In this document: piece by piece, positions 1,957 to 61,628 of the stretch
Numbering within the stretch: the first letter of the stretch is position 1
Layout of the letters: every line of letters begins with the position of its first letter
DNA from: Bacillota bacterium
Lineage (GTDB): Bacteria > Bacillota > Sulfobacillia > JAMCWA01
Reading direction: 5' to 3'
Length of the DNA stretch: 64,000 nucleotides
Assembly: GCA_023475165.1 (NCBI GenBank)
Contig: JAMCWA010000029.1
Location: forward strand, 1,950-65,949
Translations under genes and position numbers: made by a program
The notes under the pieces: generated by a model
Database searches by the model: none
The model's input: only the letters and a program-made list of their open reading frames with translations
Told to the model about the DNA's origin: nothing

Positions 1957-2095
1957 CGGCGGATGTTTTCAGCGGTCACGCCTGACTGTTTTTCGGGCGC
2001 CTCGAGAACTCAAAACCTGGTTTTTTAGCGGTCTCTTCTAACAGCTTTTCGAGCGCCTCAAGAACTTGAAGCGGGGTTTGTCAGGGGTCTCTAAG
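1957..2095. repeat. Copy or fragment cluster of the modular intergenic repeat family (TTTTCAGCGGTC-type ends plus an internal ~27-bp direct repeat)
   Basis: GGATGTTTTCAGCGGTCACG at 1961-1980 and TTTTTTAGCGGTCTCTTC at 2021-2038. TTTTCGGGCGCCTCGAGAACT (1989..) repeats as TTTTCGAGCGCCTCAAGAACT (2046..). The ends match elements at 36496-36533 and 50935-50974. Confidence 0.6.
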
Positions 2096-2384
2096 TCTGG
2101 GTTGTTTTTGTTAGTGACGGATGCTGATGGTTATCGTGATCATCGGCCCGTCATTCTTCTTTTCCGGCTTGTTGTTTCGTGAGTTCTTTAGTCCTCTCAT
2201 GGCGGCGCGACTTCTGCCATGTCCTCCCAAAATACAGGAATCCTATATGATTACCAGAGAACCAAAGGACATCCTGTTTTCTGGAAGGAGAAGGCGAAAG
2301 ATAGTTGTTAAACAGCCTTGTCGTCTTAACATAATATAGTTTATCCTTGATACACGTCATAAAATAACCACGGGAGGGAAAGAG

Positions 2385-3212
2385 ATGCCGCGACGAAGAA
2401 TAACCATCGTCCTAAGCCTGCTCTTGTTGGTAGCGCTTCTAGTGCCGGCCAGCGTGCACGCCGGAGTCTTCTACAAGTTTAGAAACGGTACCGTCCAGTA
2501 CACCTCCTCCGGAGTCATCACCACCTATCAGGAAGCTCGCTCCGCTACTCCAGAGACGAACTCGGCTGCCCCTGTTGTCAAAGGCACTAGCGTTTATCGA
2601 ACCTCTACTGGTACAACTAAAGCGGCAACGACCACCAGGGTAATCCGGTACATGGGTCAGACCAAGACGACCTACTCAACAACTGCCTCACGCGTTGTCC
2701 ACGGTGTTCCGAAAACGGTTCCGGCCCCTCAGCCTGCGCCCGCCCCGACGCCAGCTCCGGCGCCTCAACCTGCGCCGGCTCCCCAACCCGCTCCGGCTCC
2801 ACAGCCCACCCCCGCCCCTGTCTCTGGCCTGACGGCCCAGGAGCAGCAAATGGTGGACCTGGTGAACCAGGAACGAATTAAGGCCGGTCTCAAACCGCTG
2901 GCGGTTGATCTCAAGTTGACCGAACTGGCTCGGCTTAAGGCCCAAGATATGGTCAAGAACAACTACTTTGACCACATGTCGCCAACCTACGGTTCGCCCT
3001 TTGATATGATGCGGAAGGCCGGGCTCACCTTCCGGACGGCCGGGGAAAACATCGCCGGGGCCGGTACCGTCGAGCGAGCCCACAGTGCCCTCATGAATAG
3101 TGCTGGACACCGGGCCAATATCCTTAATCCAAACTTTACCCGGATCGGCATCGGGATTGTGCCTGACGGGACCTATGGCTTGATGATCTCGCAGATGTTT
3201 ATCGGTAACTGA
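2385..3212 (+). CDS. Secreted CAP/SCP-domain protein (YkwD-like) with a Pro-Ala-Gln repeat linker
   Basis: RBS GGGAGGGAAAGAG precedes ATG 2385. N-terminal signal peptide (LLLLVALLVPASVHA). (PAPAPQ)n linker. C-terminal part has NQERIKAGL...NYFDHMSPTYGSPFDMM...GENIA...HSALMNSAGHRANILNPNFTRIGIG, typical of the CAP/YkwD family. Confidence 0.85.
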   Translation: MPRRRITIVLSLLLLVALLVPASVHAGVFYKFRNGTVQYTSSGVITTYQEARSATPETNSAAPVVKGTSVYRTSTGTTKAATTTRVIRYMGQTKTTYSTTASRVVHGVPKTVPAPQPAPAPTPAPAPQPAPAPQPAPAPQPTPAPVSGLTAQEQQMVDLVNQERIKAGLKPLAVDLKLTELARLKAQDMVKNNYFDHMSPTYGSPFDMMRKAGLTFRTAGENIAGAGTVERAHSALMNSAGHRANILNPNFTRIGIGIVPDGTYGLMISQMFIGN

Positions 3213-3409
3213 CCTTCGAGGTCTCACACTTTCTTGGTGGCGCAGACGATTGATGACCTCGCAAAGTTCATCGGTAATCGACCGGCTCGGTGGTGCCTGG
3301 TCAGCAAGACCCGTCTGAACCTAATTACAAAACAGCGCCGTATGGGCCGCTTGTCATCGTCTGCCGCTGCTCCGAATGATTGTATCTCCAGTGGAACAAG
3401 CTGCAAAAT

Positions 3410-3443
3410 CGACCTGGACGCTCTGGCCAGGTCGTTTTTTTTT
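3410..3443 (+). terminator. Rho-independent terminator
   Basis: Stem CGACCTGG/CCAGGTCG with a 9-nt loop, followed by T9. Confidence 0.6.
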
Positions 3444-3599: not shown

Positions 3600-3674
3600 G
3601 GGCGAATAGCTCAGTGGTAGAGCACCTGCCTTACACGCAGGGGGTCACAGGTTCGAGCCCTGTTTCGCCCACCA
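3600..3674 (+). tRNA. tRNA-Val (anticodon TAC), CCA encoded
   Basis: Acceptor GGGCGAA/TTCGCCC, anticodon arm CCTGC-CTTACAC-GCAGG, T-loop GGTTCGAGCC, 3' ACCA. Confidence 0.95.
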
Positions 3675-3689
3675 GAGTGACGCAAATAC

Positions 3690-3767
3690 GGAGGCGTGGT
3701 GTAGCTGGCCTAACATACATGCCTGTCACGCATGAGACCGCGGGTTCGAATCCCGTCGCCTCCGCCA
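3690..3767 (+). tRNA. tRNA-Asp (anticodon GTC), CCA encoded
   Basis: Acceptor GGAGGCG/CGCCTCC, anticodon arm CATGC-CTGTCAC-GCATG, T-loop GGTTCGAATCC, 3' GCCA. Confidence 0.95.
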
Positions 3768-3772
3768 TAAAG

Positions 3773-3848
<76 letters not shown>

Positions 3849-3856
3849 GTAATCAT

Positions 3857-3931
3857 GCGGAAGTGGCTCAGTGGTGGAGCATCGCCTTGCCAAGGCGAGG
3901 GTCGCGGGTTCGAATCCCGTCTTCCGCTCCA
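3857..3931 (+). tRNA. tRNA-Gly (anticodon GCC), CCA encoded
   Basis: Acceptor GCGGAAG/CTTCCGC, anticodon arm TCGCC-TTGCCAA-GGCGA, T-loop GGTTCGAATCC, 3' TCCA. Confidence 0.95.
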
Positions 3932-4007
3932 AAAGAGTAAATCGGGGGTCTCCTTGCCAGATCCCCTTAAAGCATATGATGGTCGGATGACCAGTAAGGC
4001 TATCCTG

Positions 4008-4083
4008 GGGCGAGTGGCGAAGTGGCTAACGCTGTGGACTGCAAATCCACCATTCGTCGGTTCAATTCCGACCTCGCCCTCCA
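4008..4083 (+). tRNA. tRNA-Cys (anticodon GCA), CCA encoded
   Basis: Acceptor GGGCGAG/CTCGCCC, anticodon arm GTGGA-CTGCAAA-TCCAC, T-loop GGTTCAATTCC, 3' TCCA. Confidence 0.9.
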
Positions 4084-4089
4084 GAATAC

Positions 4090-4166
4090 GGGCGGTTAGC
4101 TCAGTTGGTTAGAGCGCATGCTTGACATGCATGAGGTCACAGGTTCGAATCCTGTATCGCCCACCA
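4090..4166 (+). tRNA. tRNA-Val (anticodon GAC), CCA encoded
   Basis: Acceptor GGGCGGT/ATCGCCC (one G-U pair), anticodon arm CATGC-TTGACAT-GCATG, T-loop GGTTCGAATCC, 3' ACCA. Confidence 0.95.
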
Positions 4167-11469: not shown

Positions 11470-12291
11470 ATGAGGTTGAAGGTGGAACATTATTTCTTGG
11501 GAGTAGACATCGGTTCTCTAACCACCAAAATCGTCCTTTTGGATGAAGGCGGGAAAATCGTGGCCCAGGCCACCCGGCGTTCGGGCTACCGCGGCAAAGA
11601 GACGGCGGAACGGTTACTGGAGGACCTGTTGCGGGAGCGGGGTTTAGGCCGGGAGCAGATCGCCAAAGTCGCGGCCACCGGCTATGGCCGGATTACTTTT
11701 CCCGCCGATCGGGAGATCTCCGAGATCACCTGCCAGGCGCGGGGGATTAACCATCTCTTTCGGGGAGTCCGCACCATCATCGACATTGGCGGGCAGGATA
11801 GCAAAGTGATCAAAATTTTGCCTAGTGGCCGGGTGGGCGATTTCGTGATGAACGATAAATGCGCGGCGGGGACGGGGCGCTTCCTGGAGGTCATGAGTCA
11901 AGCTTTGGAGGTAGACTTAGAAGAGCTGGGAAGACTGGCCGGCCTGGCGGAAAAGGCGGCAGCGATTTCCTCGACCTGTACCGTTTTCGCGGAATCGGAG
12001 GTAGTATCGTATTTGGCCCAAGGGGCCGAAAGAAGCGACATCATCGCCGGGCTTTGTGCTTCCGTGGCCGCGCGGGTAGCGGCCCTGGTCAGCCGCGTCG
12101 GTGTGGAAAAAGAGGTCCTTTTAACCGGAGGTGTGGCCCGGAACCAGGGCGTGGTGCGGGCTTTGCAGGAGAAGCTGGGTCTTGCGCTCTTGATCCCCCC
12201 AGAACCCAGTATAACGGCTGCCCTGGGCGCCGCCCTTTTTGCCCGCGACCTGGCAAGGAACAATGAAAATGTCACGATAAAAACGCGTTAA
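11470..12291 (+). CDS. ATP-dependent activase of the radical dehydratase (HgdC / BcrAD-BadFG ATPase family)
   Basis: LGVDIGSLTTKIVLLDEGG (ASKHA phosphate-1), DIGGQDSKVI, NDKCAAGTGRFLE (cluster-ligand Cys region), TGGVARNQGVV. The start is uncertain: ATG 11470 or TTG 11458. Confidence 0.85.
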   Translation: MRLKVEHYFLGVDIGSLTTKIVLLDEGGKIVAQATRRSGYRGKETAERLLEDLLRERGLGREQIAKVAATGYGRITFPADREISEITCQARGINHLFRGVRTIIDIGGQDSKVIKILPSGRVGDFVMNDKCAAGTGRFLEVMSQALEVDLEELGRLAGLAEKAAAISSTCTVFAESEVVSYLAQGAERSDIIAGLCASVAARVAALVSRVGVEKEVLLTGGVARNQGVVRALQEKLGLALLIPPEPSITAALGAALFARDLARNNENVTIKTR

Positions 12292-12374
12292 GGGGACAGA
12301 TGCCCAGGGAACTGGCATAACCAAGATATCTCCGCAATGAAAATGTCACGATAAAAACGCGTTAAGCGGACAGA
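12261..12374 (+). repeat. Direct duplication of the activase 3' end, stop codon included (40 bp, 39/40 identical, offset 74 bp)
   Basis: CAATGAAAATGTCACGATAAAAACGCGTTAAG(G/C)GGACAGA at 12261-12300 and at 12335-12374. Confidence 0.9.
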
Positions 12375-18209: not shown

Positions 18210-18530
18210 AATGTGACATCATACTTATGGCGATGATCGGGAAAGTAACTCTTTTCAGACCTAGCAGAGAAGAGGGCCGCTGGCTGAAAGCCCTCAGGCA
18301 GAGGAAAGAGCGAAAACCACCCGAGAGCCGGAGGATGAACGGGATCGCCTGCACAGATCTCGCCAGGGGTCTTTAAGGGCGGAGCGAGTCCCCTGCAGGC
18401 AGTTGACCAACGCGGTCTCCTACTAAATCCTCCCGGATGGTCCCGTTAAAGGCCGACGAGTGGATCCTTTTTCGGATCAAACAGGGTGGAACCGCGGTCA
18501 GCAACCGTCCCTATCGGGGCGGTTTTTTGT
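18210..18530 (+). promoter_or_regulatory. T-box riboswitch, Thr specifier (ACC)
   Basis: Stem I start GCGATGATCGGGAAAGTA. Specifier-loop GAAAACCA with ACC at 18316-18318. T-box AGGGTGGAACCGCG at 18483-18496. Terminator CCGTCCC-TATC-GGGGCGG plus T6 (18504-18528). Confidence 0.9.
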
Positions 18531-18564: not shown

Positions 18565-18620
18565 GCAGATGGGGTTCTTTCAGCGGTCTACCCTGAAACA
18601 AACCAGCTACTTCCAGGGCG
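18565..18620. repeat. Repeat-family fragment between the T-box terminator and the thrS start
   Basis: GCAGATGGGGTTCTTTCAGCGGTCTACC resembles CGCAGATGGGTGTTTTTCAGCGGTCTCC (50945-50974). The following CCTGAAACAAACCAGCTACTTCCAGGGCG is the reverse complement of 36555-36583. Confidence 0.7.
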
Positions 18621-20650: not shown

Positions 20651-20735
20651 CTAGGAGACCGCTAAAAAACACCCATCTGCGGTGTCGATTAGCGGCCCCG
20701 ATGCTCCGGCCAGGGGTCTCTTCGAGTGACTCAAT
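20651..20735. repeat. Repeat-family fragment (inverted orientation) downstream of thrS
   Basis: CTAGGAGACCGCTAAAAAACACCCATCTGCGGTG is the reverse complement of the module at 50941-50974. Confidence 0.7.
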
Positions 20736-20793
20736 GGAGGCTGCTCTTTTCAGGGGTGATTTTGAACAAGACCATGAAAAAAGCCTTGCGCCG

Positions 20794-20823
20794 TTGACTG
20801 GTCTTGACGCCTCATGTTATAAT
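20794..20823 (+). promoter_or_regulatory. Sigma-A promoter of the infC-rpmI-rplT operon
   Basis: TTGACT (20794-20799), 18-nt spacer with TGT, TATAAT (20818-20823). Confidence 0.6.
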
Positions 20824-21787: not shown

Positions 21788-21798
21788 GAAGCGGCTTG

Positions 21799-33229: not shown

Positions 33230-33230
33230 G

Positions 33231-42416: not shown

Positions 42417-42508
42417 TTTCGCCTAGCGGCAACCTGAGCAAGGCAGAGCGCGGATTGGACACCGGCGAGCGACGCTCAAGAAGCCTAAATTCGGGAGCAG
42501 CCCCCTAT

Positions 42509-42800
42509 GAGGCCGCTGAAAAATACCCATCTGCGGTGTGGCGCAATCTGCCAGAAAGAACCTTTTTATTAAAGGGGCGTTACTATTGCCGATTGTCGCT
42601 CCGGCGGCTCCTCGCTCAACGTACCACCTGGTACGCCTCGCCTCGGAGCCTTGTCGCTCCTAGCATCTGGGCTGATCTGAGGTCTTGGCCTTATGATTGG
42701 GCTAAAGCCGCCAGAAACACGAGCGCCATCAAGCGCAGTACAGACTAGGACGGCTTTTCCCGGGCGGGTTAACCACTCAAAACGCAGTTCGTCAGCACTC
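42509..42800 (-). repeat. Full-length copy of the modular repeat family (inverted relative to 50734-50974)
   Basis: GAGGCCGCTGAAAAATACCCATCTGCGGTGTGGCGCAAT (42509-42547), ATTGTCGCTCCGGCGG...CTCCTAGCATCTGG (42592-42670), CCGGGCGGGTTAACCACTCAAAACGCAGTTCGTCAGC (about 42759-42796). Confidence 0.9.
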
Positions 42801-42825
42801 TTCTATGTAACTGAATCCTTATCAT

Positions 42826-42859
42826 GAGAAAGCCTCACCGTTTTCGGTGAGGCTTTCTC
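42826..42859. terminator. Perfect 15-bp stem hairpin (bidirectional terminator candidate)
   Basis: GAGAAAGCCTCACCG-TTTT-CGGTGAGGCTTTCTC. It lies between the convergent synthase gene and the small minus-strand ORF. Confidence 0.5.
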
Positions 42860-42899
42860 ATGGGAGGGCAGCCACAAAAGCTCAGCGGTTATCATCAAC

Positions 42900-44395: not shown

Positions 44396-46339
44396 ATGAA
44401 CGAGGATACCCTGCCGAAATTGCTTTGGAGAAATGCCCTGCAAGCCGGTAACCGGGTAGCCCTGCGGGAAAAGGAGTTCGGAATCTGGGGCGAGGTCACC
44501 TGGCAGGGGTACCTGGAGCACGTCCGGGATTTTTCCCTGGGACTAATCAGCCTGGGTCTTGGGCAAGGGGATAAGATCGCCATCATTGGCGATAATCGAC
44601 CGGAGTGGGTCTATGCCGAGTTGGCCGTTCAGGCGGCCGGCGGAGTGTCGGTGGGGATTTACCAGGACTCCTTGCCCAAGGAAGTGGCCTATGTCATTGA
44701 TCACTCCGACGCCCTCTACGTGGTGGTGGAAGATCAGGAACAAGTGGATAAGATCCTGGAGATCAAGGAATACTTCCCCAGGGTCAAGGCCGTCATCTAT
44801 TATGACCCCAAGGGTCTGCGCAATTATCAGGAACCATTTCTTATGGCCTTTGAAGAGGTCGAAGAACGGGGTCGGCGCTTTGGTGCGGAGCACCCTGGCT
44901 TCTTCGAAGCCAGCCTGTCCCGGGGCCAAGCCAACGATCCCGCCATCATTTCCTATACTTCAGGAACGACTGGCTTTCCGAAGGGAGCCATGCTCAGTCA
45001 CCGTAACCTGATCAGCATGGCCAGAAATCTCCTGGCCTTTGATCCGATGGCCCCCGGCGACGAGTATGTTTCCTTTTTGCCGCTGGCCTGGATCGGCGAG
45101 CAAATGATGTCCCTCTCCGCCTCCCTTTGGGTGGGCTCGACGGTCAATTTCCCGGAAGAGCCGGAAACCGTACCGGAGAACCTCCGGGAAATTGGCCCTC
45201 ACATTATCTTCTCGCCGCCCCGCATTTGGGAGAACATGGTTTCCACAGTCCAGGTGAAGATTGAAGACTCAACCTTCTTGAAGAAGGTTTTCTACCGGGC
45301 CTTTATGCCCGTTGGTTACCGGATGGCGGATTATAAGTTCCAAAAGGAGCCGGCCCCCTTGACATTGCGGTTTCTCTACGCCCTGGGTAACTTTCTGGTC
45401 TTCAGTGCCATCAAGGACCACCTGGGGCTTCTACGTCTGCGGCGGGCCTACACCGGCGGAGCGGCCCTGGGCCCTGATGTCTTCCGTTTCTTCCATGCCC
45501 TGGGGGTAAACTTGAAGCAGATCTACGGTCAGACGGAGATCTCCGGGATTTCTGTGGTGCACCGGGATGACGACATCAAGTTTCACACCGTCGGGCGTCC
45601 CATTGAAGAGACGGAGATCAGAATCGATCCGGAAACGGGGGAGATCCTTTCCCGCAGCCCCAGCGTCTTTCAGGGTTACTACAAGAACCCGGCCGCCACA
45701 ACTGAAACCCTGGCCGGGGGGTGGTTGCATTCGGGGGACGCCGGCTATCTGGAAGAAAGTGGCCACTTGGTGGTCATCGATCGGATGAAAGACGTCATGC
45801 GGTTGGCCGACAATAGCATCTTTTCTCCTCAATACATCGAAAACAAACTGAAATTCAGTATGTACATTAAGGAAGCGGTGGTGGTGGGAAAAGAGAGGCC
45901 CTTCGTCATCGCCCTCATCAATATCGACATGGCCAATGCCGGCAAGTGGGCGGAGAATCACCGGCTGGCCTATACCACTTATACTGATCTGGCCCAGAAG
46001 CCTGAGGTTTATCAACTTCTCCGGGCCGAAGTGGAAAGGGTTAACCGGGACCTCCCGGAGGCGGCGCGAATTCGCCGTTTTGTCTCGCTGCACAAGGAAC
46101 TCGATGCTGATGATGAGGAACTTACCCGGACCAGGAAGATCAGGCGGGGGTACGTTTATGAAAAGTACCAGGACCTGGTGGAAGCCATCTACCGAGGCGA
46201 TGAGACGGTAAAGGTGGAGGCCAGGATTCGCTACCGGGATGGGCGGGAAGGAGTGGTGGAGACCGCTCTGCGAGTTATGGACTTGTCTTCCGGCGGGGAG
46301 GCCACGAGAGTGCTGACAAACTGCGTTTTGAGTGGTTAA
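44396..46339 (+). CDS. AMP-forming long-chain acyl-CoA synthetase embedded in the ABC transporter operon
   Basis: ISYTSGTTGFPKGAMLSH, IYGQTE, HSGDAGY...GHLVVIDRMKDV. The last ~12 codons and the stop (TAA 46337-46339) lie within a repeat-family module. Confidence 0.9.
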   Translation: MNEDTLPKLLWRNALQAGNRVALREKEFGIWGEVTWQGYLEHVRDFSLGLISLGLGQGDKIAIIGDNRPEWVYAELAVQAAGGVSVGIYQDSLPKEVAYVIDHSDALYVVVEDQEQVDKILEIKEYFPRVKAVIYYDPKGLRNYQEPFLMAFEEVEERGRRFGAEHPGFFEASLSRGQANDPAIISYTSGTTGFPKGAMLSHRNLISMARNLLAFDPMAPGDEYVSFLPLAWIGEQMMSLSASLWVGSTVNFPEEPETVPENLREIGPHIIFSPPRIWENMVSTVQVKIEDSTFLKKVFYRAFMPVGYRMADYKFQKEPAPLTLRFLYALGNFLVFSAIKDHLGLLRLRRAYTGGAALGPDVFRFFHALGVNLKQIYGQTEISGISVVHRDDDIKFHTVGRPIEETEIRIDPETGEILSRSPSVFQGYYKNPAATTETLAGGWLHSGDAGYLEESGHLVVIDRMKDVMRLADNSIFSPQYIENKLKFSMYIKEAVVVGKERPFVIALINIDMANAGKWAENHRLAYTTYTDLAQKPEVYQLLRAEVERVNRDLPEAARIRRFVSLHKELDADDEELTRTRKIRRGYVYEKYQDLVEAIYRGDETVKVEARIRYRDGREGVVETALRVMDLSSGGEATRVLTNCVLSG

Positions 46340-46349
46340 CCCGGCCGGG
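46307..46349 (+). repeat. Repeat-family left-end module overlapping the 3' end of the acyl-CoA synthetase CDS
   Basis: GAGTGCTGACAAACTGCGTTTTGAGTGGTTAACCCGGCCGGG matches GCTGACGAACTGCGTTTTAGGTGGTTAACCCGCCCGAG at 50743-50780. Confidence 0.8.
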
Positions 46350-46364
46350 AATGGAGGTCATACA

Positions 46365-47249
46365 ATGGTTTTCCTGCTGCAACTTATCGTAAGCGGCCTG
46401 GTGATCGGCGGTGTCTACGCCCTGGTGGCCTTGGGTTTTGTCCTCATTTACAAGGCCAGTGATGTCATCAACTTTGCCCAGGGGGAGTTTTTGCTCATTG
46501 GTGCCCACCTGGCCCTGACCTTCCTGCTGGTTTTCAATCTTCCCTTTATCCCGGCGGTCCTGGGCGCCTTGACGGTGGCGGTGGTCCTAGGAGCGGCCGT
46601 CGAGAGGGTGGTTTTGCGGCCCCTGATTGGCGAGCCCATCATATCCATGATTATGGCCACCATTGGGCTTTCCAGTGCTCTGCGCGGCCTTCTGCAGGTG
46701 TTTTGGGGCACTGAGACCAGGACTTTCCCCAACATCTTTCCCCAGGATGCCATTAACCTGGGCGGGGTGGTAGTTTCCCAGGTCTACCTCTGGTCTTTGG
46801 GCATCGCTCTGGTGCTCTTAGCCCTTTTCTCTTTCTTTTTCAAACGCTCTATTATGGGAATCGCCATGCGGGCCACAGCTGATGACCAGCAGGCCGCGCT
46901 TTCCATGGGCATCAGCGTCAAGGTGGCCTTCGCCGTGACCTGGGCCCTGGCCGCCGCTATTTCCACCGTGGGCGGGGTACTCCTGGGTAATATCAACGGG
47001 GTAAACATCTCTCTGGCCCATTTCGGCCTCAAGGTCTTGCCAGTGGTCATCCTGGGAGGGCTGGATAGCATTCCGGGGGCCATTGTCGGCGGGTTCATCA
47101 TTGGGATCCTGGAAAACCTGGCCGGGGGATACCTTGACCCCCTGTTGGGAGGTGGAGTTAAGGAAGTGGCACCCTTTATCATCCTGGTCCTCATCCTCAT
47201 GCTCAAGCCCTATGGTCTTTTCGGAAAGCAAGTCATCGAGCGGGTCTAG
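46365..47249 (+). CDS. ABC transporter permease (LivH-like)
   Basis: ATG 46365 lies 7 nt after GGAGG. MVFLLQLIVSGLVIGGVYALVALGFVLIYKAS is the typical LivH N-terminus. Confidence 0.9.
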   Translation: MVFLLQLIVSGLVIGGVYALVALGFVLIYKASDVINFAQGEFLLIGAHLALTFLLVFNLPFIPAVLGALTVAVVLGAAVERVVLRPLIGEPIISMIMATIGLSSALRGLLQVFWGTETRTFPNIFPQDAINLGGVVVSQVYLWSLGIALVLLALFSFFFKRSIMGIAMRATADDQQAALSMGISVKVAFAVTWALAAAISTVGGVLLGNINGVNISLAHFGLKVLPVVILGGLDSIPGAIVGGFIIGILENLAGGYLDPLLGGGVKEVAPFIILVLILMLKPYGLFGKQVIERV

Positions 47250-47321
47250 CAGACTGCTGATAAATGGCGTCTTTGGTGGTTAACAGTCCCAGAGAGCAAC
47301 TGAAAGAAAGGGTGCTAACCA

Positions 47322-49762: not shown

Positions 49763-49941
49763 AGATAGATGAGATGGGCTTGGCGCAAACTGGGCTCTAT
49801 TGACGACTGGGGTCGGGGTCTTCAAGAAACTGAGAAATGAGGTGAAAGCCAGCCGGTGGGGTGAAGCAGGGGTGACTTTGGAATGTAGGGTTAATGACCC
49901 GGGTTTGGAGTCGCGGTGCGCACCACACCGGCCGGCCCTCC

Positions 49942-50736
49942 ATGTTAACCTTGAATAACGTGGAAGTCATGTATGATAACGTCATCCTCGTCCTGAAGGG
50001 GATGTCCATGGCGGTGCCGCAGGGGAAGATCGTGGCCCTTTTGGGTTCCAACGGCGCGGGCAAGAGTACGACTCTGAAGGCCATCTCCGGTCTGCTGAAA
50101 GCTGAGGATGGGGCCGTCACCGATGGAGATATCAACTTCGAGGGCCAACGCATCGATAACCAGTCGGCCGACGCCATTGTCAGGCGGGGAATCTTCCAGG
50201 TCATGGAGGGACGCCGGGTCTTTGAACACCTGACGACGGAGGAGAACCTCCTGGCGGGGTCTTACATCCGACGCGACCGCCAAAACATCAAGAGGGACCT
50301 GAGTCTAGTCTACGACTATTTTCCTCAACTGATGAAACTGCAAAAAAGAACGGCTGGTTATCTCAGCGGTGGGGAGCAGCAAATGCTGGCCATCGGACGG
50401 GGTTTGATGGCCCGCCCCAAGCTCCTGCTCCTTGATGAGCCGTCCCTGGGATTAAGTCCTCTCTTGGTCAGGGAGATTTTCGAGATCATTCGCCGGATCA
50501 ACCAGGAGGAAAAGACCACCATCCTTTTGGTGGAGCAAAGTGCCACCATGGCTCTGGGGATCGCCGACTACGGCTATATCATGGAAAACGGGAAGATCGT
50601 CCTGGAGGGAACGGCGGAAAAGCTCCGGGACAACGAGGACGTCAAGGAGTTTTATCTGGGTTTGACCGAGGTCGGGAAGAAAAAGAGTTACCGGGAAGTA
50701 AAACACTACAAGCGGCGAAAGCGATGGCTTTCCTAG
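49942..50736 (+). CDS. ABC transporter ATP-binding protein (LivF-like)
   Basis: MLTLNNVEVMYDNVILVLKGMS, Walker A GSNGAGKST, signature LSGGEQQMLAIGRGL, Walker B LLLLDEPS. The alternative start is ATG 49894. Its stop TAG 50734-50736 is the first triplet of a repeat element. Confidence 0.85.
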   Translation: MLTLNNVEVMYDNVILVLKGMSMAVPQGKIVALLGSNGAGKSTTLKAISGLLKAEDGAVTDGDINFEGQRIDNQSADAIVRRGIFQVMEGRRVFEHLTTEENLLAGSYIRRDRQNIKRDLSLVYDYFPQLMKLQKRTAGYLSGGEQQMLAIGRGLMARPKLLLLDEPSLGLSPLLVREIFEIIRRINQEEKTTILLVEQSATMALGIADYGYIMENGKIVLEGTAEKLRDNEDVKEFYLGLTEVGKKKSYREVKHYKRRKRWLS

Positions 50737-51002
50737 GAGACCGCTGACGAACTGCGTTTTAGGTGGTTAACCCGCCCGAGAAGCTGTTAGGGCGAGACCG
50801 CTCAAAAATCCCCAGATGCTAGGAGCGACAAGGCGCCGAGGCGAGGCGTACTAGGTGGTACGTTGAGCGAGGAGCCGCCGGAGCGACAATCTGCAATAGT
50901 AACGCCCCTTTGATAAAAAGGTTCTTTCTTGCAGATTGCGCCACACCGCAGATGGGTGTTTTTCAGCGGTCTCCTAGGAGACCGCTGACGAACTGCGTTT
51001 TC
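50734..51002 (+). repeat. Full-length repeat-family copy (about 240 bp) plus an abutting 28-bp left-end fragment, forming a 24-bp perfect palindrome at the junction
   Basis: TAGGAGACCGCTGACGAACTGCG...(50734..), CCAGATGCTAGGAGCGACAAGG...GAGCGACAAT (50812-50890), ATTGCGCCACACCGCAGATGGGTGTTTTTCAGCGGTCTCC (50935-50974), then TAGGAGACCGCTGACGAACTGCGTTTTC (50975-51002). Palindrome CAGCGGTCTCCTAGGAGACCGCTG at 50964-50987. Confidence 0.9.
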
Positions 51003-54696: not shown

Positions 54697-55377
54697 TTGA
54701 CCAAGCGCTTTCTCGCTGTGACTCTCCTGTTAATGCTGTTGGTCTGGCTGGTTTGGCGAATGGGGAGTTGGGAACCAGGGAGAGGCAGTTACCTTTTCCT
54801 CTTCGTTTGGGAGAACAATACCGCCGCCCTGGCGGGCCAACCCCTGGGGGGCTCACCCTGGCCGGAGATCACCCCAGACCCACCCAGTGGCTCCTTGACG
54901 GTACCTGCTGGCACGGCAGTCCCGGACGGGAAGCGGCCTGTACTGGTCCTGCAACGCATCGACTCCCTGGACACCCATCTGGCTTCCCGTCTCTTCGCGG
55001 CGGAGAGGCTTCCTGAGATCATCGAGATCAATCGACCGGTACAATGGGAGGCGGAGGTATTTGGCCCGGATGGCCGCTTCAAAGGGAAGGGGAAGGCTGT
55101 GCGCAATGAGGAAAGGCTCCTGGCAGGTAACATCAAGCTAGTGGGGATTGATCCCGATGGTACCGTGCGTCTGACCTACGGGGAAAGGGACCTGGAGTTG
55201 AGGCCGGGGGAAAGCTGGGGAGAGTTAAGGATCTCAAGACCTGATGGACAGATAACCGTTCGGGCCGACCAGTGGGAAAAGGAGGCTCAGGAGGCTTTGG
55301 AGAAGCGGTGGGTAATGACCAGGTTAACCGTCCAGAACCTGGGCTGGTGGAAAAGGGAGCGGATTAAGGTGAGATAG
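54697..55377 (+). CDS. Membrane-anchored hypothetical protein (226 aa)
   Basis: TTG 54697 lies 8 nt after AGGGGGAA. N-terminal TM LAVTLLLMLLVWLVW. No recognisable domain. Directly precedes the 1123-aa hydrolase gene. Confidence 0.6.
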   Translation: MTKRFLAVTLLLMLLVWLVWRMGSWEPGRGSYLFLFVWENNTAALAGQPLGGSPWPEITPDPPSGSLTVPAGTAVPDGKRPVLVLQRIDSLDTHLASRLFAAERLPEIIEINRPVQWEAEVFGPDGRFKGKGKAVRNEERLLAGNIKLVGIDPDGTVRLTYGERDLELRPGESWGELRISRPDGQITVRADQWEKEAQEALEKRWVMTRLTVQNLGWWKRERIKVR

Positions 55378-55478
55378 GGAACTGGGAAACGGCTAATCAA
55401 CTGCGTTTGAGTAGGTAACCTGGGGGTCTTGTAGCTATATCCTAGATAATGGCAGTACAGTTGGGGGGAGCAAGGCGG

Positions 55479-58400
55479 ATGATCTCGGCACAAGATTTCA
55501 GGTGGTGGGGAAGATATGACCTTAGGAACGGGGCTGTGCTCTCCGGGATGTCATCAGGACTTCTCCGGGGAATCTCTCCCAAAGCGCGAGGCAAGAGGGA
55601 TTTTGGTGGGGTGGGGTCGCTGCGGACGCGATGGATTTCAGCAAATCTCACCGGATATCTGGCTGCCTGGGGCTCCCAAGCCAGTCGCCGCCGGCGTATC
55701 CTGGCGGGGGGAATCCTGATCGTTCTCTTCACCACCTTTATCTTCAGTAATACCACTTGTGGTAGTAAGGGGCACGAAGAGGAAACTACCCCTCAGGTAC
55801 CTGTCATTTTGGTGCATGGCCTCGCTTCTAGCCCAACTGCTGCCTGGGGCGCTCCCGCTGACCTGGGCCCGGCTTCTTCCCGCTGGTGGGAGAACCGTTC
55901 CGGCCGCGGGAACGGTAGGGCCGCCGATGCTCCTTGGACAGAGCTCGCAGGTTGTGACCGGCCGGAGGAGGCACCGGGATGGCCGAGCCGGCAAACCAGC
56001 AGCCGTCCGCCGACGGAATCAGACGGACTATATCCTTTTTTGGTGCGGGCTGGCTATGTTCCCGGTCGGACCCTCTTCCTCCTGGATTACGAGGATGACA
56101 ACAACGGCGACTACATTCTGATTGCCCGGGAACGACTGGCCCCATTTATCGAGAGGGTCAAGGCCGTCAGTGGTTCTCCATGGGTTGATGTGGTGGCCCA
56201 TAGCATGGGCGGCCTCGTGACCAGATTCTATGTTGCGGAGGGGGGCGGCGCCAGCCTCCGAAACGTCATCCTCCTGGGGACACCGAATCACGGCTCCTTC
56301 GCCGCCAACATCCTCGCGGAGCTGGCGGTCACCCGCCAGTATGATGAGTTTCAGTCCAAGCACCCCGGGGTTTGGTTTCAAGGGGCGACCCAGGCCAGAG
56401 AACCTCCCGCGCCGTCATTTTCTGAGGGTTTGGACGGCACATTCCCTCGGGAGAGGCCGTCTGCTGCCGAAATATCCGTTAGCGGTCAGAGGGAAGATCC
56501 CGGAGGTAAATGCGTTCAGGAGCAACCCTTGAGCCGGGAGGCTTTGCTCTTTCTTCATGAACGGGTTCAGCTCTACCTGCCGCGCCTGGTCCAGTATCTT
56601 TTGCAGGAGCGTTTCGGCCCGGCTAACCGAACCAACAGCCCCACGAGGTTGGGCAGCTTCAGCTTCAAGAGCTATTTCCCTTGGCGATACCAGCAAGATT
56701 ACCAGGCTTTCTTTCGTCAAGGGCAAAGATATCCGCTAGCTCTGAGCTTGGCCGGGCTAGCCATGGGTGGTACCACCAGAACCCTTGTAGGGGAAGACCC
56801 AGTCCGGGAGGTCTTTACGCCGGGGATGGCTGTTCCTCAGGATATCTGGGCTTTGAGCCGCGCCTATTTTGAAACCCTGGCTCTGGATCTTACTGCTTAT
56901 TCCTACCAATACCTTTGGCGAGGAGAGAACGTCCTGGTGGCTGAGGGATGGGAAGGGGATGGGAGGGAAGAAAAAGGGACCCTCACAACATTGCCCCCCA
57001 ACTTCATGGCGGCTTCAGCCAGGGTATTGGCGTGGTTGGCCGAAAGATTGATGTCCTTCCTGGGTTCGGAAGCAGTGAGCGTGGCGCTGCGGGATCAGGC
57101 TTTGGAAACCTCGGGCTGGCTGAGGATTCGCCCTTCTTCTGTGGCCATCAACCGACTGCTGCTGGAGCAAGTGGAATTTCCTGTTGCCAGTCCGGGGAAA
57201 ACGGGGTGGCTCACCTCGGCAGCGGCGGGAGGCAACTGGAACGGTGCTCAGACGAGCAGGGACGCCAGCCGTTTTGAAGCCCTCCAGGGTAACCTCTTCC
57301 TGGCCGGCTGGAACAACTGGGAGGCCAGGGAGCGGAAGGCGTCTCCCAAGTCTTTCCGGGCTTTTCCGGGAATCAAATATGTTACCATTGCCGGGGGGAT
57401 CCTCAACCCCTGGCAGTTGGTCTGGCCGCAGGTGCAGGAGAACGATAGCGTGGTGGAGGTAGGGTCCACCCTTTTGCCCTGGCAGAGAGATGACGTCTTT
57501 TACCTCTGGCGGGGGTCCGTCAGCAGCAATCACCTGGCCTTAACCAGGAGAAAGGATGTTCAGCAGCAGGTCTTGCGGCACTTAAGGGACTACTTTCCGA
57601 TAGAGCGGCAACTGGTGCCCACTATTGGGTGGAATTGGTGGCGGTTTGACCGGTGGGCTCGGCGCGGGTCCTTGGAGGTAACGCAGTGGCAACCGACCTA
57701 TTTGTCGGTCGACAGTCGTGCCCTGAAGGGGCATTCGGGACGGGTCACGGTGGAAATCCCGAGGCTGAAGCTCCCTTCTGACAGCAATTTGCAGGTTTGG
57801 GTCTACGGGAGCAGAGGAGAAGGATGGTTTGAGGTCTTGGCTGATGAGTGGGAACCAGGGGGACCTCTGAAAAACGAGAAGGTGCCCCGGCTGCAGATAG
57901 AAGGTTTCGGGAGCGCGTATGATCGACTGCTGGTGGGTTTTCGTCTTCGTCTCGACCACCGGCCGCCCTGGCCGAAGGAAAGGGGAGGGGTTTACTTTCA
58001 GGTGACTTTTTCCCCGGAGGAAAAGGCTCTCGAAGATGGGACGACAGCGATAACTGCAGGGGCGGGACAGGGACCCGATGAGGCGTCGGACGACCTCTGG
58101 TTGCGACGAACGAAAGAGGCGGAGAAGAGATCGGTTGTCGAGGAAGGGAGAGGGCTCCAGCCAGGTTCGGTAGGGCATTCCAATTTGCCCTGGGTCAGCC
58201 CGCCCTATCCTGATGATGAATTGGGAAACAAGGGGTTCTCCTCCCGGCCAGACTGGCCATTGGTCGAGGTAAGAGGGGTGAACCGGAATACGGCCGAGCG
58301 TAAGGAAGACAGGACTCATCACCAATACTGGGAGTGGCAACTAAATGGGGCTGGAATCCCATTTGTCGACAAAGATGGGGGTTTGATATCAGAAGCTACT

Positions 58401-58850
58401 CTGAACTTCACCAAACCAGGCCAGTATTACCTGGAAGCAAGATCCATCAGTAATAAGAGCGACCTCCTCCGCCACGTCAAGTGGACCGTGGAGATAAAAC
58501 CAGAGGATCTCAGCCAGGGGCGGGCGACCAGGGGATTTGAACTGGAGACGGCTCGCGAGCCTCGTGCGGACCTGGACATCCAGGGGCCACGGAAATGGAT
58601 CACCGGTTTGCCGGCTCCTTTCAAGGCCAAGGCAGAAATCACCTGGCCGAATAACGGTGTTCAAGAAGCGGTAACCCTTTACCCCGGCCGGGAGTTCTAC
58701 GTCGTCTTTGACAAACCGGGGAAATTCCCCGTCACGGCGGCCGTTCAGGTGAAGGTACGCTATCACTTCCCCGAAAGGACCTACGTCTTGAGTAACACCT
58801 ACATCAAAAAGGTCTGGGTGGAGGTGGTAACCACAGGGACCAGCGATTAG
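55479..58850 (+). CDS. Large membrane-anchored protein: N-terminal TM, PGAP1/lipase-type alpha/beta-hydrolase domain, ~800 aa of unknown function with Ig/PKD-like C-terminal modules
   Basis: ATG 55479 after GGGGGGAG. TM ILAGGILIVLFTTFIF. Hydrolase motifs VPVILVHGLASSP, the nucleophile elbow VVAHSMGGLVTRFY, and LLGTPNHGS. C-terminal FTKPGQYYLEARS and FDKPGKFPVTAAV beta-sandwich-like motifs. The stop TAG 58848-58850 belongs to a repeat element. Confidence 0.8.
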   Translation: MISAQDFRWWGRYDLRNGAVLSGMSSGLLRGISPKARGKRDFGGVGSLRTRWISANLTGYLAAWGSQASRRRRILAGGILIVLFTTFIFSNTTCGSKGHEEETTPQVPVILVHGLASSPTAAWGAPADLGPASSRWWENRSGRGNGRAADAPWTELAGCDRPEEAPGWPSRQTSSRPPTESDGLYPFLVRAGYVPGRTLFLLDYEDDNNGDYILIARERLAPFIERVKAVSGSPWVDVVAHSMGGLVTRFYVAEGGGASLRNVILLGTPNHGSFAANILAELAVTRQYDEFQSKHPGVWFQGATQAREPPAPSFSEGLDGTFPRERPSAAEISVSGQREDPGGKCVQEQPLSREALLFLHERVQLYLPRLVQYLLQERFGPANRTNSPTRLGSFSFKSYFPWRYQQDYQAFFRQGQRYPLALSLAGLAMGGTTRTLVGEDPVREVFTPGMAVPQDIWALSRAYFETLALDLTAYSYQYLWRGENVLVAEGWEGDGREEKGTLTTLPPNFMAASARVLAWLAERLMSFLGSEAVSVALRDQALETSGWLRIRPSSVAINRLLLEQVEFPVASPGKTGWLTSAAAGGNWNGAQTSRDASRFEALQGNLFLAGWNNWEARERKASPKSFRAFPGIKYVTIAGGILNPWQLVWPQVQENDSVVEVGSTLLPWQRDDVFYLWRGSVSSNHLALTRRKDVQQQVLRHLRDYFPIERQLVPTIGWNWWRFDRWARRGSLEVTQWQPTYLSVDSRALKGHSGRVTVEIPRLKLPSDSNLQVWVYGSRGEGWFEVLADEWEPGGPLKNEKVPRLQIEGFGSAYDRLLVGFRLRLDHRPPWPKERGGVYFQVTFSPEEKALEDGTTAITAGAGQGPDEASDDLWLRRTKEAEKRSVVEEGRGLQPGSVGHSNLPWVSPPYPDDELGNKGFSSRPDWPLVEVRGVNRNTAERKEDRTHHQYWEWQLNGAGIPFVDKDGGLISEATLNFTKPGQYYLEARSISNKSDLLRHVKWTVEIKPEDLSQGRATRGFELETAREPRADLDIQGPRKWITGLPAPFKAKAEITWPNNGVQEAVTLYPGREFYVVFDKPGKFPVTAAVQVKVRYHFPERTYVLSNTYIKKVWVEVVTTGTSD

Positions 58851-59066
58851 GAGACTACGGAAAAACACCATCTGCTTTGGCGCAATCCGCCGGAGAGCTT
58901 TTCTCAAAAATGTGACGCGCTATGGCGGATTGTGGTGTAATCGCCAGGAGAAGTTCTCCGAAAATGTCGCGTAACTATAGGCGATTGTGGCGCAATCGGC
59001 CTGCAACAGGGTGCCATGTCAAAAGGGACCTAGACTATGGCCGATTGAGTCGTTGCAGCGGCACCA
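58848..59066 (-). repeat. Repeat-family copy in inverted orientation with three to four tandem 56-58-bp hairpin modules
   Basis: TAGGAGACTACGGAAAAACACCATCTGCTTTGGCGCAATCCGCC, then units starting TATGGCGGATTGTGGTGTAATCGCC (58921), TATAGGCGATTGTGGCGCAATCGGCC (58977) and TATGGCCGATTGAGTCG (59035). This is the reverse complement of the 36331-36533 architecture. Confidence 0.85.
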
Positions 59067-59154
59067 CAAAGGATGAAAACGTCGCTTCAGTAGGGACCGC
59101 CAATAAGGTTCTCGACCTTTCCCCTCTCCCATATAACTTTAGGGGGTGGGAAGG

Positions 59155-61575
59155 GTGACTTTGGACCAGGTTCCCCGCGGGAAACGGGTGCAGGTTGTGG
59201 CTATCACCGATGAGCCGGTGCGGCTGACGGCCCTACGTTTGGGGCTGATTCCCGGCTCTTGGCTGACGGTCCTGGAGAACCTCCCGGGCGGACCCGTGGT
59301 GGTCTGCCAAAACCGGCAGGAAATAGCCTTGGGACGCTCGCTGGCCCGTTCCCTCCTCGTGGAGAAAAACCACCGGAGGGACAAGGAGAACGACCGGACC
59401 AACTGGGGCGGCTCCCCGGAGACACGGCCACGGGCCGCCAAACCTTCGCCGGAAGAAGTTTCAACTGCCACGGATCGCCCGGCCGGACCGGAGCGATTCA
59501 AACTCCCGGCCGTGACTTTGTCCCAAGTGGGGCGAGGATCGTCGTGCTTTGGTTGCCGAAAGGCTCGGGCCGCAGCTTGTCCCTTCAGCTGGAATCCTCA
59601 TCCCCGGGGGAAGGAACCGCGACTTGTTCAGCCCAGCGCTGGGATGAACAGGGCGGAGGCTCCCCCCTGCCGTCAAAAAGAAGCGGCCGTCATCCCGACG
59701 AAACGCGGTGGTGGGATGAGCGGGGAAGGTTACCCTCCCACCCTGGCTCTCGCGGGGAATCCCAATGTGGGGAAGTCGGTGATCTTTAACTATCTTACCG
59801 GTTTATACGTGAACGTCTCCAATTACCCGGGGACCACGGTGGAGGTCGCCTGGGGATGTTTTGGCCCTTATACCGTGGTTGATTCTCCTGGAATCTACGG
59901 GATTTCCTCCTTCAGCGATGAGGAGAGGGTGGCCCGAGAGGCCCTTTTGACAGCGGACTTGATCTTAAATGTGGTGGATGCTACTCACCTAGAGCGGGAT
60001 CTCTTTCTTACGCTACAGTTGCTGGATATGGGCAAGCCCATGCTGGTGGCCCTGAACCTTTTCGATGAGGCCCAGCGCCTGGGACTGAAGATTGATGTGC
60101 CCCTATTGAGCCGGCTCTTGGGGGTTCCCGTGGTGCCCACGGTGGCGGTAAAAGGGCGTGGTCTGGAAGAACTGAAGTCTAGAATCGGGGAGGCTAGAGG
60201 TGGTCAGCCTGACCCGGTGCTGCAAAGAGAGCTCTCAATCTACCGGAGCCTGACCGGTTCGCCGGCGGAAGCCTGGCAATGGGTCGAGGAGGGTGGCCTT
60301 CCGCCGAGCCGCCTGTCCGGGCTGCCGGAGAACTGCCCGGGGGTGCGGACTTACCGGAGGGAGATGCTTTACCAGCGCCGCCGGGAACGGTTAGAAGAAA
60401 TCGTCGCCTCTGTCTTGCGCGTACCGGCCACCCCCATCCCGGCGTGGTTTCGACTTAATAGAATGGTGCTCAACCCCCTGACGGGTTTTCCCATCTTGGT
60501 CCTCGTCCTCTTCTTGGTCTTCTACTTATTTGGGGTTCTGGTGGCCCAGGGCCTGGTGGGGATCACCGAGGGTGTAATCATGAAAGATTACTACGTACCC
60601 TTCTTGAAGCGGACGGTAACGGGACTGTTGGAGGCGGATTCGCTTCTGGATCAGGTTTTGGTGGGGGAATTCGGGCTCCTGACGATGGCGGTCACCTATC
60701 TCTTGGGGCTGCTTCTCCCCCTGGTCTTCGGTTTTTCCCTGGCCCTTTCCCTCCTGGAGGACTCTGGTTATCTCCCGAGGATTGCGGTGCTTTTGGACGG
60801 ACCAATGACCAGATGGGGGCTTAACGGTCGGGCCATCATTCCCTTTACCCTCGGCCTGGGTTGTGTGACCATGGCCATGTTGACCACGCGAGTTCTGACC
60901 ACCCGCCGTGAGCGACGCATTGCCATTGTCTTGTTAAGTCTGGCCATTCCCTGTTCGGCTCAGCTTGGGGTAGTGACAGGACTGCTTTCCCGGATTTCTG
61001 GCGGTATCGCCCTCCTCTATGTCCTGATTCTTGGGGGGGTGCTGTCAGTCATGGGAACCCTTCTGCAGAGGCTCTTGCCCGGACAGTCCAGCGCTTTGCT
61101 CCTGGACCTTCCTCCCTTACGCTGGCCTCAGTGGTCCAACGTACTCCGGAAGTCGGCGTTGCGAGCCGGGGCTTTCTTGCACGAAGCCGGTCCTCTTTTC
61201 GTTTACAGCGCCCTGGTCCTGACTCTGCTTCAGGTCACCGGCTATTTGGCCCAACTGGAGAGATGGTTGAACCCCCTGACGGTGGACTGGTTGCGCCTCC
61301 CGCCGGGGGCAACCCGCAGTTTCATTCTCGGTTTTGTCCGCCGGGATTTCGGAGCCGCCGGCCTGTATGCCCTGAGTCTGACAGATTGGCAGACCTTGGT
61401 GGCAGCCGTCACCATCACCCTTTTTGTTCCTTGTATAGCCTCAGTTACGGTAATCTTTAAGGAGCAGGGGGCAGGAGAAGGGGTGGCCCTCTGGCTCCTT
61501 AACCTGTTCGTAGCTTTCTTGATAGGGGGTTTGGTGGCCAGGTGGCCCTTTTCCGGGGTAAGCATTCCCTTTTAA
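59155..61575 (+). CDS. feoB: Fused FeoA-FeoB ferrous iron transporter
   Basis: GTG 59155 lies 8 nt after AGGGGG. The FeoA domain (VTLDQVPRGKRVQVVAITDE...LGLIPGSWLTVLENLPGGPVVV) runs in one open frame, through a ~110-aa Arg/Pro-rich linker, into the FeoB G-domain (ALAGNPNVGKSVIFN, DSPGIY) and its polytopic membrane domain. Confidence 0.85.
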   Translation: MTLDQVPRGKRVQVVAITDEPVRLTALRLGLIPGSWLTVLENLPGGPVVVCQNRQEIALGRSLARSLLVEKNHRRDKENDRTNWGGSPETRPRAAKPSPEEVSTATDRPAGPERFKLPAVTLSQVGRGSSCFGCRKARAAACPFSWNPHPRGKEPRLVQPSAGMNRAEAPPCRQKEAAVIPTKRGGGMSGEGYPPTLALAGNPNVGKSVIFNYLTGLYVNVSNYPGTTVEVAWGCFGPYTVVDSPGIYGISSFSDEERVAREALLTADLILNVVDATHLERDLFLTLQLLDMGKPMLVALNLFDEAQRLGLKIDVPLLSRLLGVPVVPTVAVKGRGLEELKSRIGEARGGQPDPVLQRELSIYRSLTGSPAEAWQWVEEGGLPPSRLSGLPENCPGVRTYRREMLYQRRRERLEEIVASVLRVPATPIPAWFRLNRMVLNPLTGFPILVLVLFLVFYLFGVLVAQGLVGITEGVIMKDYYVPFLKRTVTGLLEADSLLDQVLVGEFGLLTMAVTYLLGLLLPLVFGFSLALSLLEDSGYLPRIAVLLDGPMTRWGLNGRAIIPFTLGLGCVTMAMLTTRVLTTRRERRIAIVLLSLAIPCSAQLGVVTGLLSRISGGIALLYVLILGGVLSVMGTLLQRLLPGQSSALLLDLPPLRWPQWSNVLRKSALRAGAFLHEAGPLFVYSALVLTLLQVTGYLAQLERWLNPLTVDWLRLPPGATRSFILGFVRRDFGAAGLYALSLTDWQTLVAAVTITLFVPCIASVTVIFKEQGAGEGVALWLLNLFVAFLIGGLVARWPFSGVSIPF

Positions 61576-61600
61576 CCCGCTCAGGAGTATAATTCCTTGG

Positions 61601-61628
61601 GGAGATGGGGGTTTTTCAGCGGTCTCCC
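61601..61628 (+). repeat. Repeat-family right-end fragment
   Basis: GGAGATGGGGGTTTTTCAGCGGTCTCCC matches GCAGATGGGTGTTTTTCAGCGGTCTCC. Confidence 0.7.

Follow-up and report, generated by a model that had tools for sequence, protein, structure and literature searches.

A 64,000-nucleotide stretch of a Bacillota bacterium genome (GCA_023475165.1, contig JAMCWA010000029.1, positions 1,950 to 65,949 of the forward strand; hereafter the window, to which all coordinates refer unless a contig is named) held a single modular intergenic repeat, with three full-length copies of 243, 300, and 409 bp and nine or more partial ones. These repeats are probably copies and decayed fragments of a non-autonomous element similar to a MITE (miniature inverted-repeat transposable element), whose family is widespread in uncultured bacteria. 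A BLAST search of the window with the three full copies recovered 12 loci, and self-BLAST of the window revealed the same loci. The terminal motif TAGGAGACCGCTGANRAAC had 16 matches at three or fewer mismatches, against an expectation of 0.05 from shuffled sequences. A preliminary description of this DNA had reported left-end, central, and right-end modules recurring in intergenic gaps at 12 or more loci in both orientations, at about one locus per 5 kb; the density was confirmed, and sequence reading and BLAST placed all three module types at the positions that it had given. The full copies, for which about 240, 290, and 400 bp had been estimated, measured 243 bp (copy A, 50734-50976), 300 bp (copy C, 42506-42805), and 409 bp (copy B, 36127-36535).

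An analysis of the module ends revealed that the left, central, and right modules are parts of a single inverted-repeat element, which the preliminary description had not recognised. The left-end and right-end modules shared their first 12-17 nt, in opposite orientations: TA|GGAGACCGCTGACGAAC at the left end and, after reverse-complementing, TA|GGAGACCGCTGAAAAAC at the right end. A second copy of the terminus inside the left end, GAGACCGCTCAAAAA, formed the inner-left arm and complemented the right end better. The termini of the window copies had the form TA|GGAGACCGCTGA..., and those of most other hosts TA|GCAGGCCGCTGAAAAAG.... The element was 130-410 bp in size and contained no gene. The sole long open reading frame (ORF) starting inside a copy (36296-37066) matched HycI only from residue 132, downstream of the element.

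Copy A (+ strand) consisted of TA with the outer-left terminus (50734-50760), a lineage-specific left hairpin (50761-50793), the inner-left arm (50794-50823), a core with a GAGGCGTAC-loop-GTACGTT hairpin (50824-50887), a 58-nt hairpin module (50888-50945), and the right terminus with TA (50946-50976). TAGGAGACCGCTGA was present at both of its ends, and copies A and C were bounded by TA on each side. Copy C (- strand) contained, from its right terminus (42506-42536), the 58-nt module (42537-42594), the core (42595-42658), the inner-left arm (42659-42686), an enlarged left hairpin region (42687-42778), and the outer-left terminus (42779-42805). Copy B (+ strand), located between the NiFe-hydrogenase large subunit gene (stop at 36120) and the HycI protease gene, contained the outer-left terminus (36127-36153), the inner-left arm (36186-36215), the core (36216-36279), four tandem 55-58-nt hairpin modules (36282-36505), and the right terminus with TA (36506-36535). 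Copies A and C were 95.7% identical over 163 nt, and copy B was about 78% identical to copy A by BLAST. The 55-58-nt internal unit, which was single in copies A and C and fourfold in copy B, was threefold in a partial copy (58877-59046), and these counts of one, one, three, and four agree with the earlier proposal that the copies differ by insertion or amplification of internal modules.

The family is not private to this genome, a point that the preliminary description had missed. The right-end 22-mer motif GCAGATGGGTNTTTTTNAGCGG matched 49 contigs of the JGI metagenomes, with a core hairpin, GAGGCGTAC-loop-GTACGYYGCAG, upstream of the motif, and an inverted partner, CAGGCCGCTCAAAAAGGCCCAGATGC, located about 101 nt upstream of it in most copies. 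The 49 host contigs ranged in GC content from 0.50 to 0.75, and several copies per contig were common; a covariance model (R1) placed the family at 65 sites on them. A profile hidden Markov model (HMM) was constructed from an alignment (A4) of 26 metagenome sequences only, with the window copies left out. This model matched all three full window copies in two pieces, at profile positions 6-78 and about 89-127, with E-values of 3.4e-9 to 1.6e-4, and it also matched four solo right ends. The two pieces were located at 50795-50867 (E 3.4e-9) and 50940-50972 (E 1.5e-6) in copy A, at 36187-36259 (E 6.7e-7) and 36494-36531 (E 1.6e-6) in copy B, and at 42679-42615 (E 1.6e-4) and 42547-42510 (E 5.1e-7) in copy C. 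Unrelated DNA (494 kb) gave zero matches to the same model. It follows that the window elements belong to this family and carry additional modules inserted between core and right end. The window-specific left module had no match in the JGI metagenomes and is thus lineage-specific; an 18-mer of it gave at least 67 single chance matches in unrelated taxa of a genome collection. No family member was found in 5,426 E. coli genomes, in plasmids, or in viral contigs.

Protein comparisons indicated the hosts of some of the metagenome contigs. A gene on contig L087 encoded a protein 97% identical to that of a "Candidatus Methylomirabilis sp." metagenome-assembled genome (MAG), which identified a Methylomirabilota host, and the closest named relatives of a gene on L081 (GC 0.53) were deltaproteobacterial MAGs, at only 72% identity. 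The family spans at least Bacillota and Methylomirabilota. Copies were dense in these contigs, with six strong copies in 20 kb of L127 (Methylomirabilota) and five in 11 kb of L087.

Mobility was indicated by three closely related contigs that shared one site. L080 was empty at this site, with the sequence GGC-TA-CGG, whereas L077 and L123 were filled, with TA|GCAGG...CCTGC|TA. The single TA of the empty site and the TA on each side of the filled ones showed that TA was duplicated and that the outer boundary of the element includes the outer-left module; the preliminary description had proposed empty sites and target-site duplications as a check on its reading. The right end was followed by TA in 21 of 40 non-redundant copies, where we estimate that chance would give a few percent at this G+C content, and TA|GCAGG was the common left boundary. 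The element inserts at a TA dinucleotide and duplicates it. New insertions often enter the TA at the end of a resident copy, which produces tandem and composite copies. Tandem copies with a shared TA were found in L084, in L120, and in the window, where a solo outer-left terminus (50975-51001, + strand), an exact repeat of 50734-50760, joined copy A through a shared TA to form a perfect 26-nt palindrome (50963-50988), 17 nt upstream of the acetyl-CoA synthetase start (51019). Within the rod, short hairpin modules are inserted or multiplied in tandem, and deletions leave solo ends; by sequence reading, L082 resembled the L118 copy with an internal deletion. In L077 (3339-3487), L080 (444-592), L102, L108, L122, and L101, a 23-nt mini-hairpin (GGGTACCCACCGAAGGTGGGTCC and variants) was seen at one or two places in the rod of some copies. 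It was carried by L077 and L080 and was missing from the orthologous copy in L123, and it may be a second-order module comparable to the 55-nt unit of the window.

The threonyl-tRNA synthetase (ThrRS) of the window matched, at 100% identity, a partial protein from an NCBI MAG labelled Firmicutes/Bacillota bacterium, and contigs of the same species (MAG GCA_023379645.1 and Logan assemblies) matched the window at 99.9-100%. These same-species assemblies were identical to the window at the loci checked, with no positional polymorphism. The nearest other lineage (contigs L070-L073) had a ThrRS 86-87% identical to that of the window and was syntenic over about 20 kb, and no repeat copies were found in these syntenic relatives. 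The spacer between rpmI and rplT, which was 204 nt long in the window, was about 50-60 nt without an element in L070 and L072. Short-read contigs of the same species started inside elements, L001 and L002 at window position 50953 and L126 at 21906, and when mis-joined contigs were excluded, 2/3 of the same-species short-read contigs examined began within an element. Breaks inside the copies are what would be expected of a high-copy repeat. Separately, contig L074 (JAMCQG010000353.1) matched the window at 19198-20517 in the forward direction and then at 19027-8979 in reverse; this fold-back join lay inside thrS, away from the repeat copies, and is most likely an assembly artefact.

The element has a conserved, covarying, rod-like fold, which was also missed in the preliminary description, where a covariance model had been suggested as the way to look for one. 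The core of the family formed a rod hairpin of about 130 nt, and compact copies contained about 60 pairs each, at -58 to -108 kcal/mol. In the A4 alignment, 90.3% of the cells of the rod were paired, as compared with 34-41% when the partners were slid. Twenty pairs were changed on both sides, 13 of the 15 interior pairs were compensatory, and none of 500 shuffles equalled the rod on any of five measures. The rod also contained nearly invariant non-canonical features, namely a C-C mismatch, a G.U pair, and a tandem G-A/G-A beside CCCA/UGGG. In addition, G.U or U.G cells outnumbered A.C or C.A cells by 94 to 12 in A4 and by 206 to 40 over the 65 sites of the covariance model; hence only the left-to-right strand keeps the fold. 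R1 scored the sense strand 2-3 times higher than the antisense strand; compact, uninterrupted copies reached 105-142 bits in the sense direction, and their antisense scores were roughly a fifth to half of these.

In their predicted folds, the window copies are branched versions of the family rod. The fold of copy A paired both termini (z -4.7). In copy B (z -5.7), the inner-left arm was predicted to pair with the right terminus, and each 55-nt module formed its own hairpin. The outer stem of this module was 93.8% paired, with compensatory changes in four of eight pairs (CUGCA/UGCAG, CCGCC/GGCGG, and CGGCC/GGCCG). The two arms of the core in the window were purine-rich direct repeats (GGAGCGACAAGG...GGAGCGACAAT) instead of Watson-Crick complements, and as read from the sequence they could pair only through G-A mismatches.

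The orientation of the copies relative to genes was counted with a gene caller based on codon-position G+C. Between co-directional genes, 17 copies lay antisense and nine sense, and a further 11 copies lay between convergent and three between divergent genes. Promoter regions are avoided, and there is no preference for the sense orientation. A.C cells numbered one in the nine sense-context copies and 16 in the 17 antisense-context copies, and the strand bias persisted in both contexts. Selection on the host transcript would add such a split to a bias inherited from source copies; the split is only suggestive of it, since the copies counted are not independent of one another.

Taken as a MITE-like element, the repeats would rely on a transposase encoded elsewhere and acting in trans. 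An enzyme of the IS630/Tc1-mariner type, none of which was found in the sequence examined, is suggested by the TA duplication and by the CAGG...AAAAA termini, which may resemble Tc1-type ends (CAGTGCTGGCCAAAAAG...). The fold would be kept on one strand since the element is transcribed in host operons, where the RNA hairpin must be tolerated, and the hairpin may also protect mRNA ends or behave like a terminator, comparable in this to ERIC, Correia, REP, or SPRITE elements. The earlier reading of the repeats as a modular, hairpin-rich mosaic of the BOX/REP/MITE kind was supported by the TA-flanked inverted termini and the variable internal hairpin modules, and their reading as mobile by the absence of copies at orthologous sites in relatives and by the TA duplication in related contigs.

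Several results weigh against a MITE-like element moved in this way. A Pfam search of about 400 kb of host sequence revealed no autonomous element or transposase with these termini, and a 20-kb stretch of L127 with proper gene calls contained no transposase gene. A transposase of the double-strand cut-and-paste type explains neither the fold on one strand nor the conserved mismatches, and the mixed orientation of the copies means that simple co-transcription does not account for the strand bias. At the polymorphic site, the filled copies differed considerably, and a loss in L080 is indistinguishable from a gain in the other two contigs. Copy C folded no better than shuffled sequences (z -1.4). 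The covariance model of the compact form scored the window copies at only 8.8-11.8 bits (E 0.9-5, not significant), and the better scores in the window belonged to the tandem 55-nt units or an unrelated palindrome; these poor scores arose because the inserted modules interrupt the rod and because the core arms are purine-rich direct repeats.

The fold on one strand is what a REPIN-like origin would lead one to expect, in which a single-stranded DNA hairpin is moved by a RAYT/IS200-type Y1 (HUH) enzyme and the flanking TA is a cleavage or target motif. Strand-specific folding with conserved stem mismatches, the extragenic location and high copy number, and the lack of a DDE transposase with matching ends in the sequence examined all fit such an origin. 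However, the empty site had one TA and the filled sites two, as duplication gives, and the termini were true inverted repeats of 12-17 nt. The 5' GTAG-type REP motif was absent, the unit was 130-410 nt long instead of a pair of REPs of about 35 nt, and no Y1 gene was seen in the host genome fragments examined, so that a REPIN-like origin appears unlikely. A somewhat better, though still small, chance is given to a new class of mobile element, in which the folded single strand would be the active form and the rod, with its invariant C-C mismatch, G.U pair, and tandem G-A pairs, the substrate of a strand-specific DNA nuclease or transposase or of an RNA-guided or RNA-templated system. If true, this would explain why the fold is kept on one strand regardless of gene direction, why the ends are nearly identical across phyla, and why no ordinary transposase is seen nearby.

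Another reading makes the repeat chiefly a spread terminator or mRNA-end module of the SPRITE or REP kind, kept by selection at gene ends. Its A5-stem-U5 hairpin would then halt or slow transcription from both sides or shield the mRNA upstream of it. On the sense strand, the base of the rod has the form AAAAA-GGCCCA...UGGGUC-UUUUU, with an equivalent in the opposite strand, convergent settings were four times commoner than divergent ones (11 vs. 3), and many copies adjoined stop codons; SPRITE is a precedent (PMC3184786). Nevertheless, copies lay inside operons ahead of essential genes, as between rpmI and rplT or within the hydrogenase-hycI pair, and the U tract was itself paired in the rod. 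A simple terminator scan left the elements unflagged because the loop of the rod exceeds the 8-nt loop limit of the scan. As the sole explanation such a module is quite unlikely; it describes an effect instead of the origin of the copies and complements the MITE-like explanation without replacing it. The covariation, the G.U asymmetry, and the loops and non-canonical pairs conserved in hosts of GC 0.50-0.75 would also suit a non-mobile, multi-copy structured non-coding RNA gene or cis-regulatory RNA, of which the repeats would be paralogous functional copies. That reading is very improbable given a density of up to one copy per 2-3 kb in both orientations, the lack of a link to any gene family, the empty and occupied states of one site with its duplicated TA, the existence of truncated, tandem, and internally deleted copies, and the lack of an Rfam match. 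A CRISPR-type origin of the main repeat was rejected, as it showed no repeat-spacer regularity.

The preliminary description could not assign the repeats to any family, and our searches agreed, with no match in Rfam or in the known families tested. No Rfam family reached its gathering score at the repeat sites of the window, nothing relevant appeared for ten metagenome loci at E<=1, and a literature search by sequence strings gave no match. The family is apparently undescribed and of a known kind, a MITE-like structured intergenic repeat. As defined in PMC3184786, MITEs have terminal inverted repeats and a target-site duplication, are small and lack a transposase gene, and occur as dispersed copies that vary among relatives. 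The generic MITE features (inverted termini, TA duplication, small size, a stable fold, and empty and filled sites) were all found here.

Correia elements (CREE/NEMIS) of Neisseria were similar in several respects. They are 100-160 bp long with inverted termini, TA at both ends, and a long hairpin, occur at high density next to or inside transcription units, and exist in full and internally deleted forms; in our own reading of the sequences, an A5/T5 tract lay about 10 nt from each end in both families. Unlike Correia elements, the window family has a duplicated left terminus and inserted hairpin modules, and its hosts belong to other phyla. Homology was rejected, since the family HMM missed verified Correia copies in 40 kb of N. 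gonorrhoeae and alignment scores of 15 and 18 were in the range of shuffles; the Correia query was checked and was 98.7% identical to real N. gonorrhoeae copies. ERIC (also called IRU), a 127-bp enterobacterial MITE, is likewise TA-flanked and an imperfect palindrome of rod-like form, about 130 nt long; it is transcribed together with its neighbours and has an orientation-dependent effect on mRNA decay (PMC3184786). ERIC is confined to the Enterobacteriaceae and their relatives. A relationship to it was not supported, as the family consensus had no blastn match in 5,426 complete E. coli genomes at E up to 10.

The pneumococcal BOX element resembled the window family as a mosaic with fixed end modules and an internal module in variable number. 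By description only, BOX differs in lacking the long terminal inverted repeats and the TA duplication seen here. RUP and Nezha, MITEs derived from the IS630 family, have a TA target duplication, and their movement is attributed to an IS630-type transposase acting in trans; the mobility of Nezha was shown from empty versus filled sites (PMC3184786), which is the type of evidence given by L080 versus L077 and L123. A parent insertion sequence with matching ends is known for RUP and Nezha, whereas none is known for the window family. REP, BIME, and REPIN sequences are also extragenic hairpin repeats in mosaic clusters, with high copy number and an important single-strand structure. However, REPs are palindromes of about 35 nt with a conserved 5' tetranucleotide and no target duplication, and these hallmarks were not seen here, where the termini were TA|GCAGG or TA|GGAGA and the unit was a rod of at least 130 nt with TA duplicated. 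Chunjie, which is A+T-rich with 9-bp duplications (PMC3184786), differs from the window family.

The remaining copies in the window were composite, partial, or solo. Between rpmI (stop at 21787) and rplT (start at 21992), BLAST and sequence reading revealed a composite (21798-21954, + strand) consisting of a degenerate right-terminus remnant (21798-21822), TA with an outer-left terminus (21823-21849), an enlarged left hairpin, and an inner-left arm (21938-21954), without a core or right end. The partial copy at 58848-59046 (- strand) contained a right terminus (58848-58876) and tandem hairpin modules at 58877-58931, 58932-58986, and 58987-59046, and a decayed core and left half may make up the sequence beyond it, as far as about 59115. 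A solo left-end module with outer-left terminus and left hairpin was found at 46308-46349 (+ strand) by BLAST and sequence reading, and a diverged one at 47247-47284 (+ strand) by BLAST and a terminus-motif match. Solo right termini were located at 20652-20681 (- strand, with TA, 25 nt downstream of the thrS stop; HMM E 7.6e-6) and at 61602-61629 (+ strand, between a feoB-like gene with its stop at 61575 and the next gene with its start at 61643; HMM E 0.035). A diverged right terminus (18566-18591, + strand; HMM E 0.0015) lay in the thrS leader between the T-box and the start codon. The T-box leader itself (18224-18515, 108 bits) was located upstream of thrS, and the right-terminus fragment that followed it was missing in relatives. 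At 1958-2094 (- strand), a decayed composite consisted of three tandem units, each with a GAGACCGCTGA-like terminus followed by a left-hairpin-like segment, and was weak by itself; a degenerate left-end module (55391-55420, + strand) downstream of the gene at 54697-55377 was visible by eye only. The weakest of the pieces listed in the preliminary description, those at 1957-1980, 21799-21824, and 55390-55425, were recognisable by eye and were not individually significant in the HMM search.

Insertion at TA in G+C-rich genomes accounts for the many copies that overlie a TAG or TAA stop codon or immediately precede a ribosome-binding site. The TAG at the start of copy A (50734-50736) was the stop codon of an ABC ATPase gene (49894-50736), the TAG in the right-terminus TA at 58848-58850 was that of the gene at 55449-58850, and the TAG that opened the left module at 47247-47249 was that of a permease gene (46332-47249). 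The TAA stop of an AMP-binding enzyme gene (44396-46339) fell within the left module at 46308-46349.

Other repeated sequences in the window were distinct from this family. A near-perfect palindrome of 40 nt (42823-42862; tgagaaagcctcaccg...cggtgaggctttctca) lay beside the left end of copy C, outside the repeat family, and in its sequence looks like a bidirectional terminator. Four locus-specific pairs of direct repeats were located at 12261-12374, 24590-24695, 31389-31493, and 42309-42416, each of which overlapped or closely followed the stop codon of a gene on the + strand (ORFs ending at 12291, 24615, 31389, and 42338). The repeats were 35-40 nt long and 94-98% identical, recurred with a start-to-start period of 70-74 nt, and were separated by an unrelated insert of some 35 nt. 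These are the dimensions of CRISPR, and off-target spacer integration by Cas1-Cas2, an event termed 'neo-CRISPR', is one idea for how they might have arisen. A possible extension of the third pair to 47 nt (85% identity) would fit this idea less well, and the inserts had no exact match in viral contigs. The relative L070 lacked the pair at the end of trkH and carried a weaker pair at its positions 20711-20822 (72-nt period, 75% identity). L127 had a similar pair at 2613-2712, at the azlC/azlD junction, with 29-nt repeats that were 86% identical and had a period of 71 nt; by sequence reading, this pair duplicates the start of azlD. The window also contained a cluster of six tRNA genes on the + strand (3600-4166; Val, Asp, Phe, Gly, Cys, and Val) and encoded the sporulation protein SipL; the gene at 144-1928 had an internal tandem duplication of about 456 nt (391-1363, 66% identity) corresponding to repeated SipL/SPOCS domains, with three matched stretches.

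In at least two phyla of uncultured bacteria, the element takes up much of the intergenic space, reaching one copy per 2-3 kb in a contig of Methylomirabilota, and short-read assemblies break at its copies. It can now be masked or annotated in MAGs with a covariance model and an HMM. The near-identical ends in hosts of GC 0.50-0.75 and the conserved non-canonical pairs make the family a good case for the questions of movement between phyla and of the retention of a fold on a single strand. Since the element supplies stop codons and adjoins ribosome-binding sites in operons, it probably affects the processing and expression of the mRNAs of its hosts.

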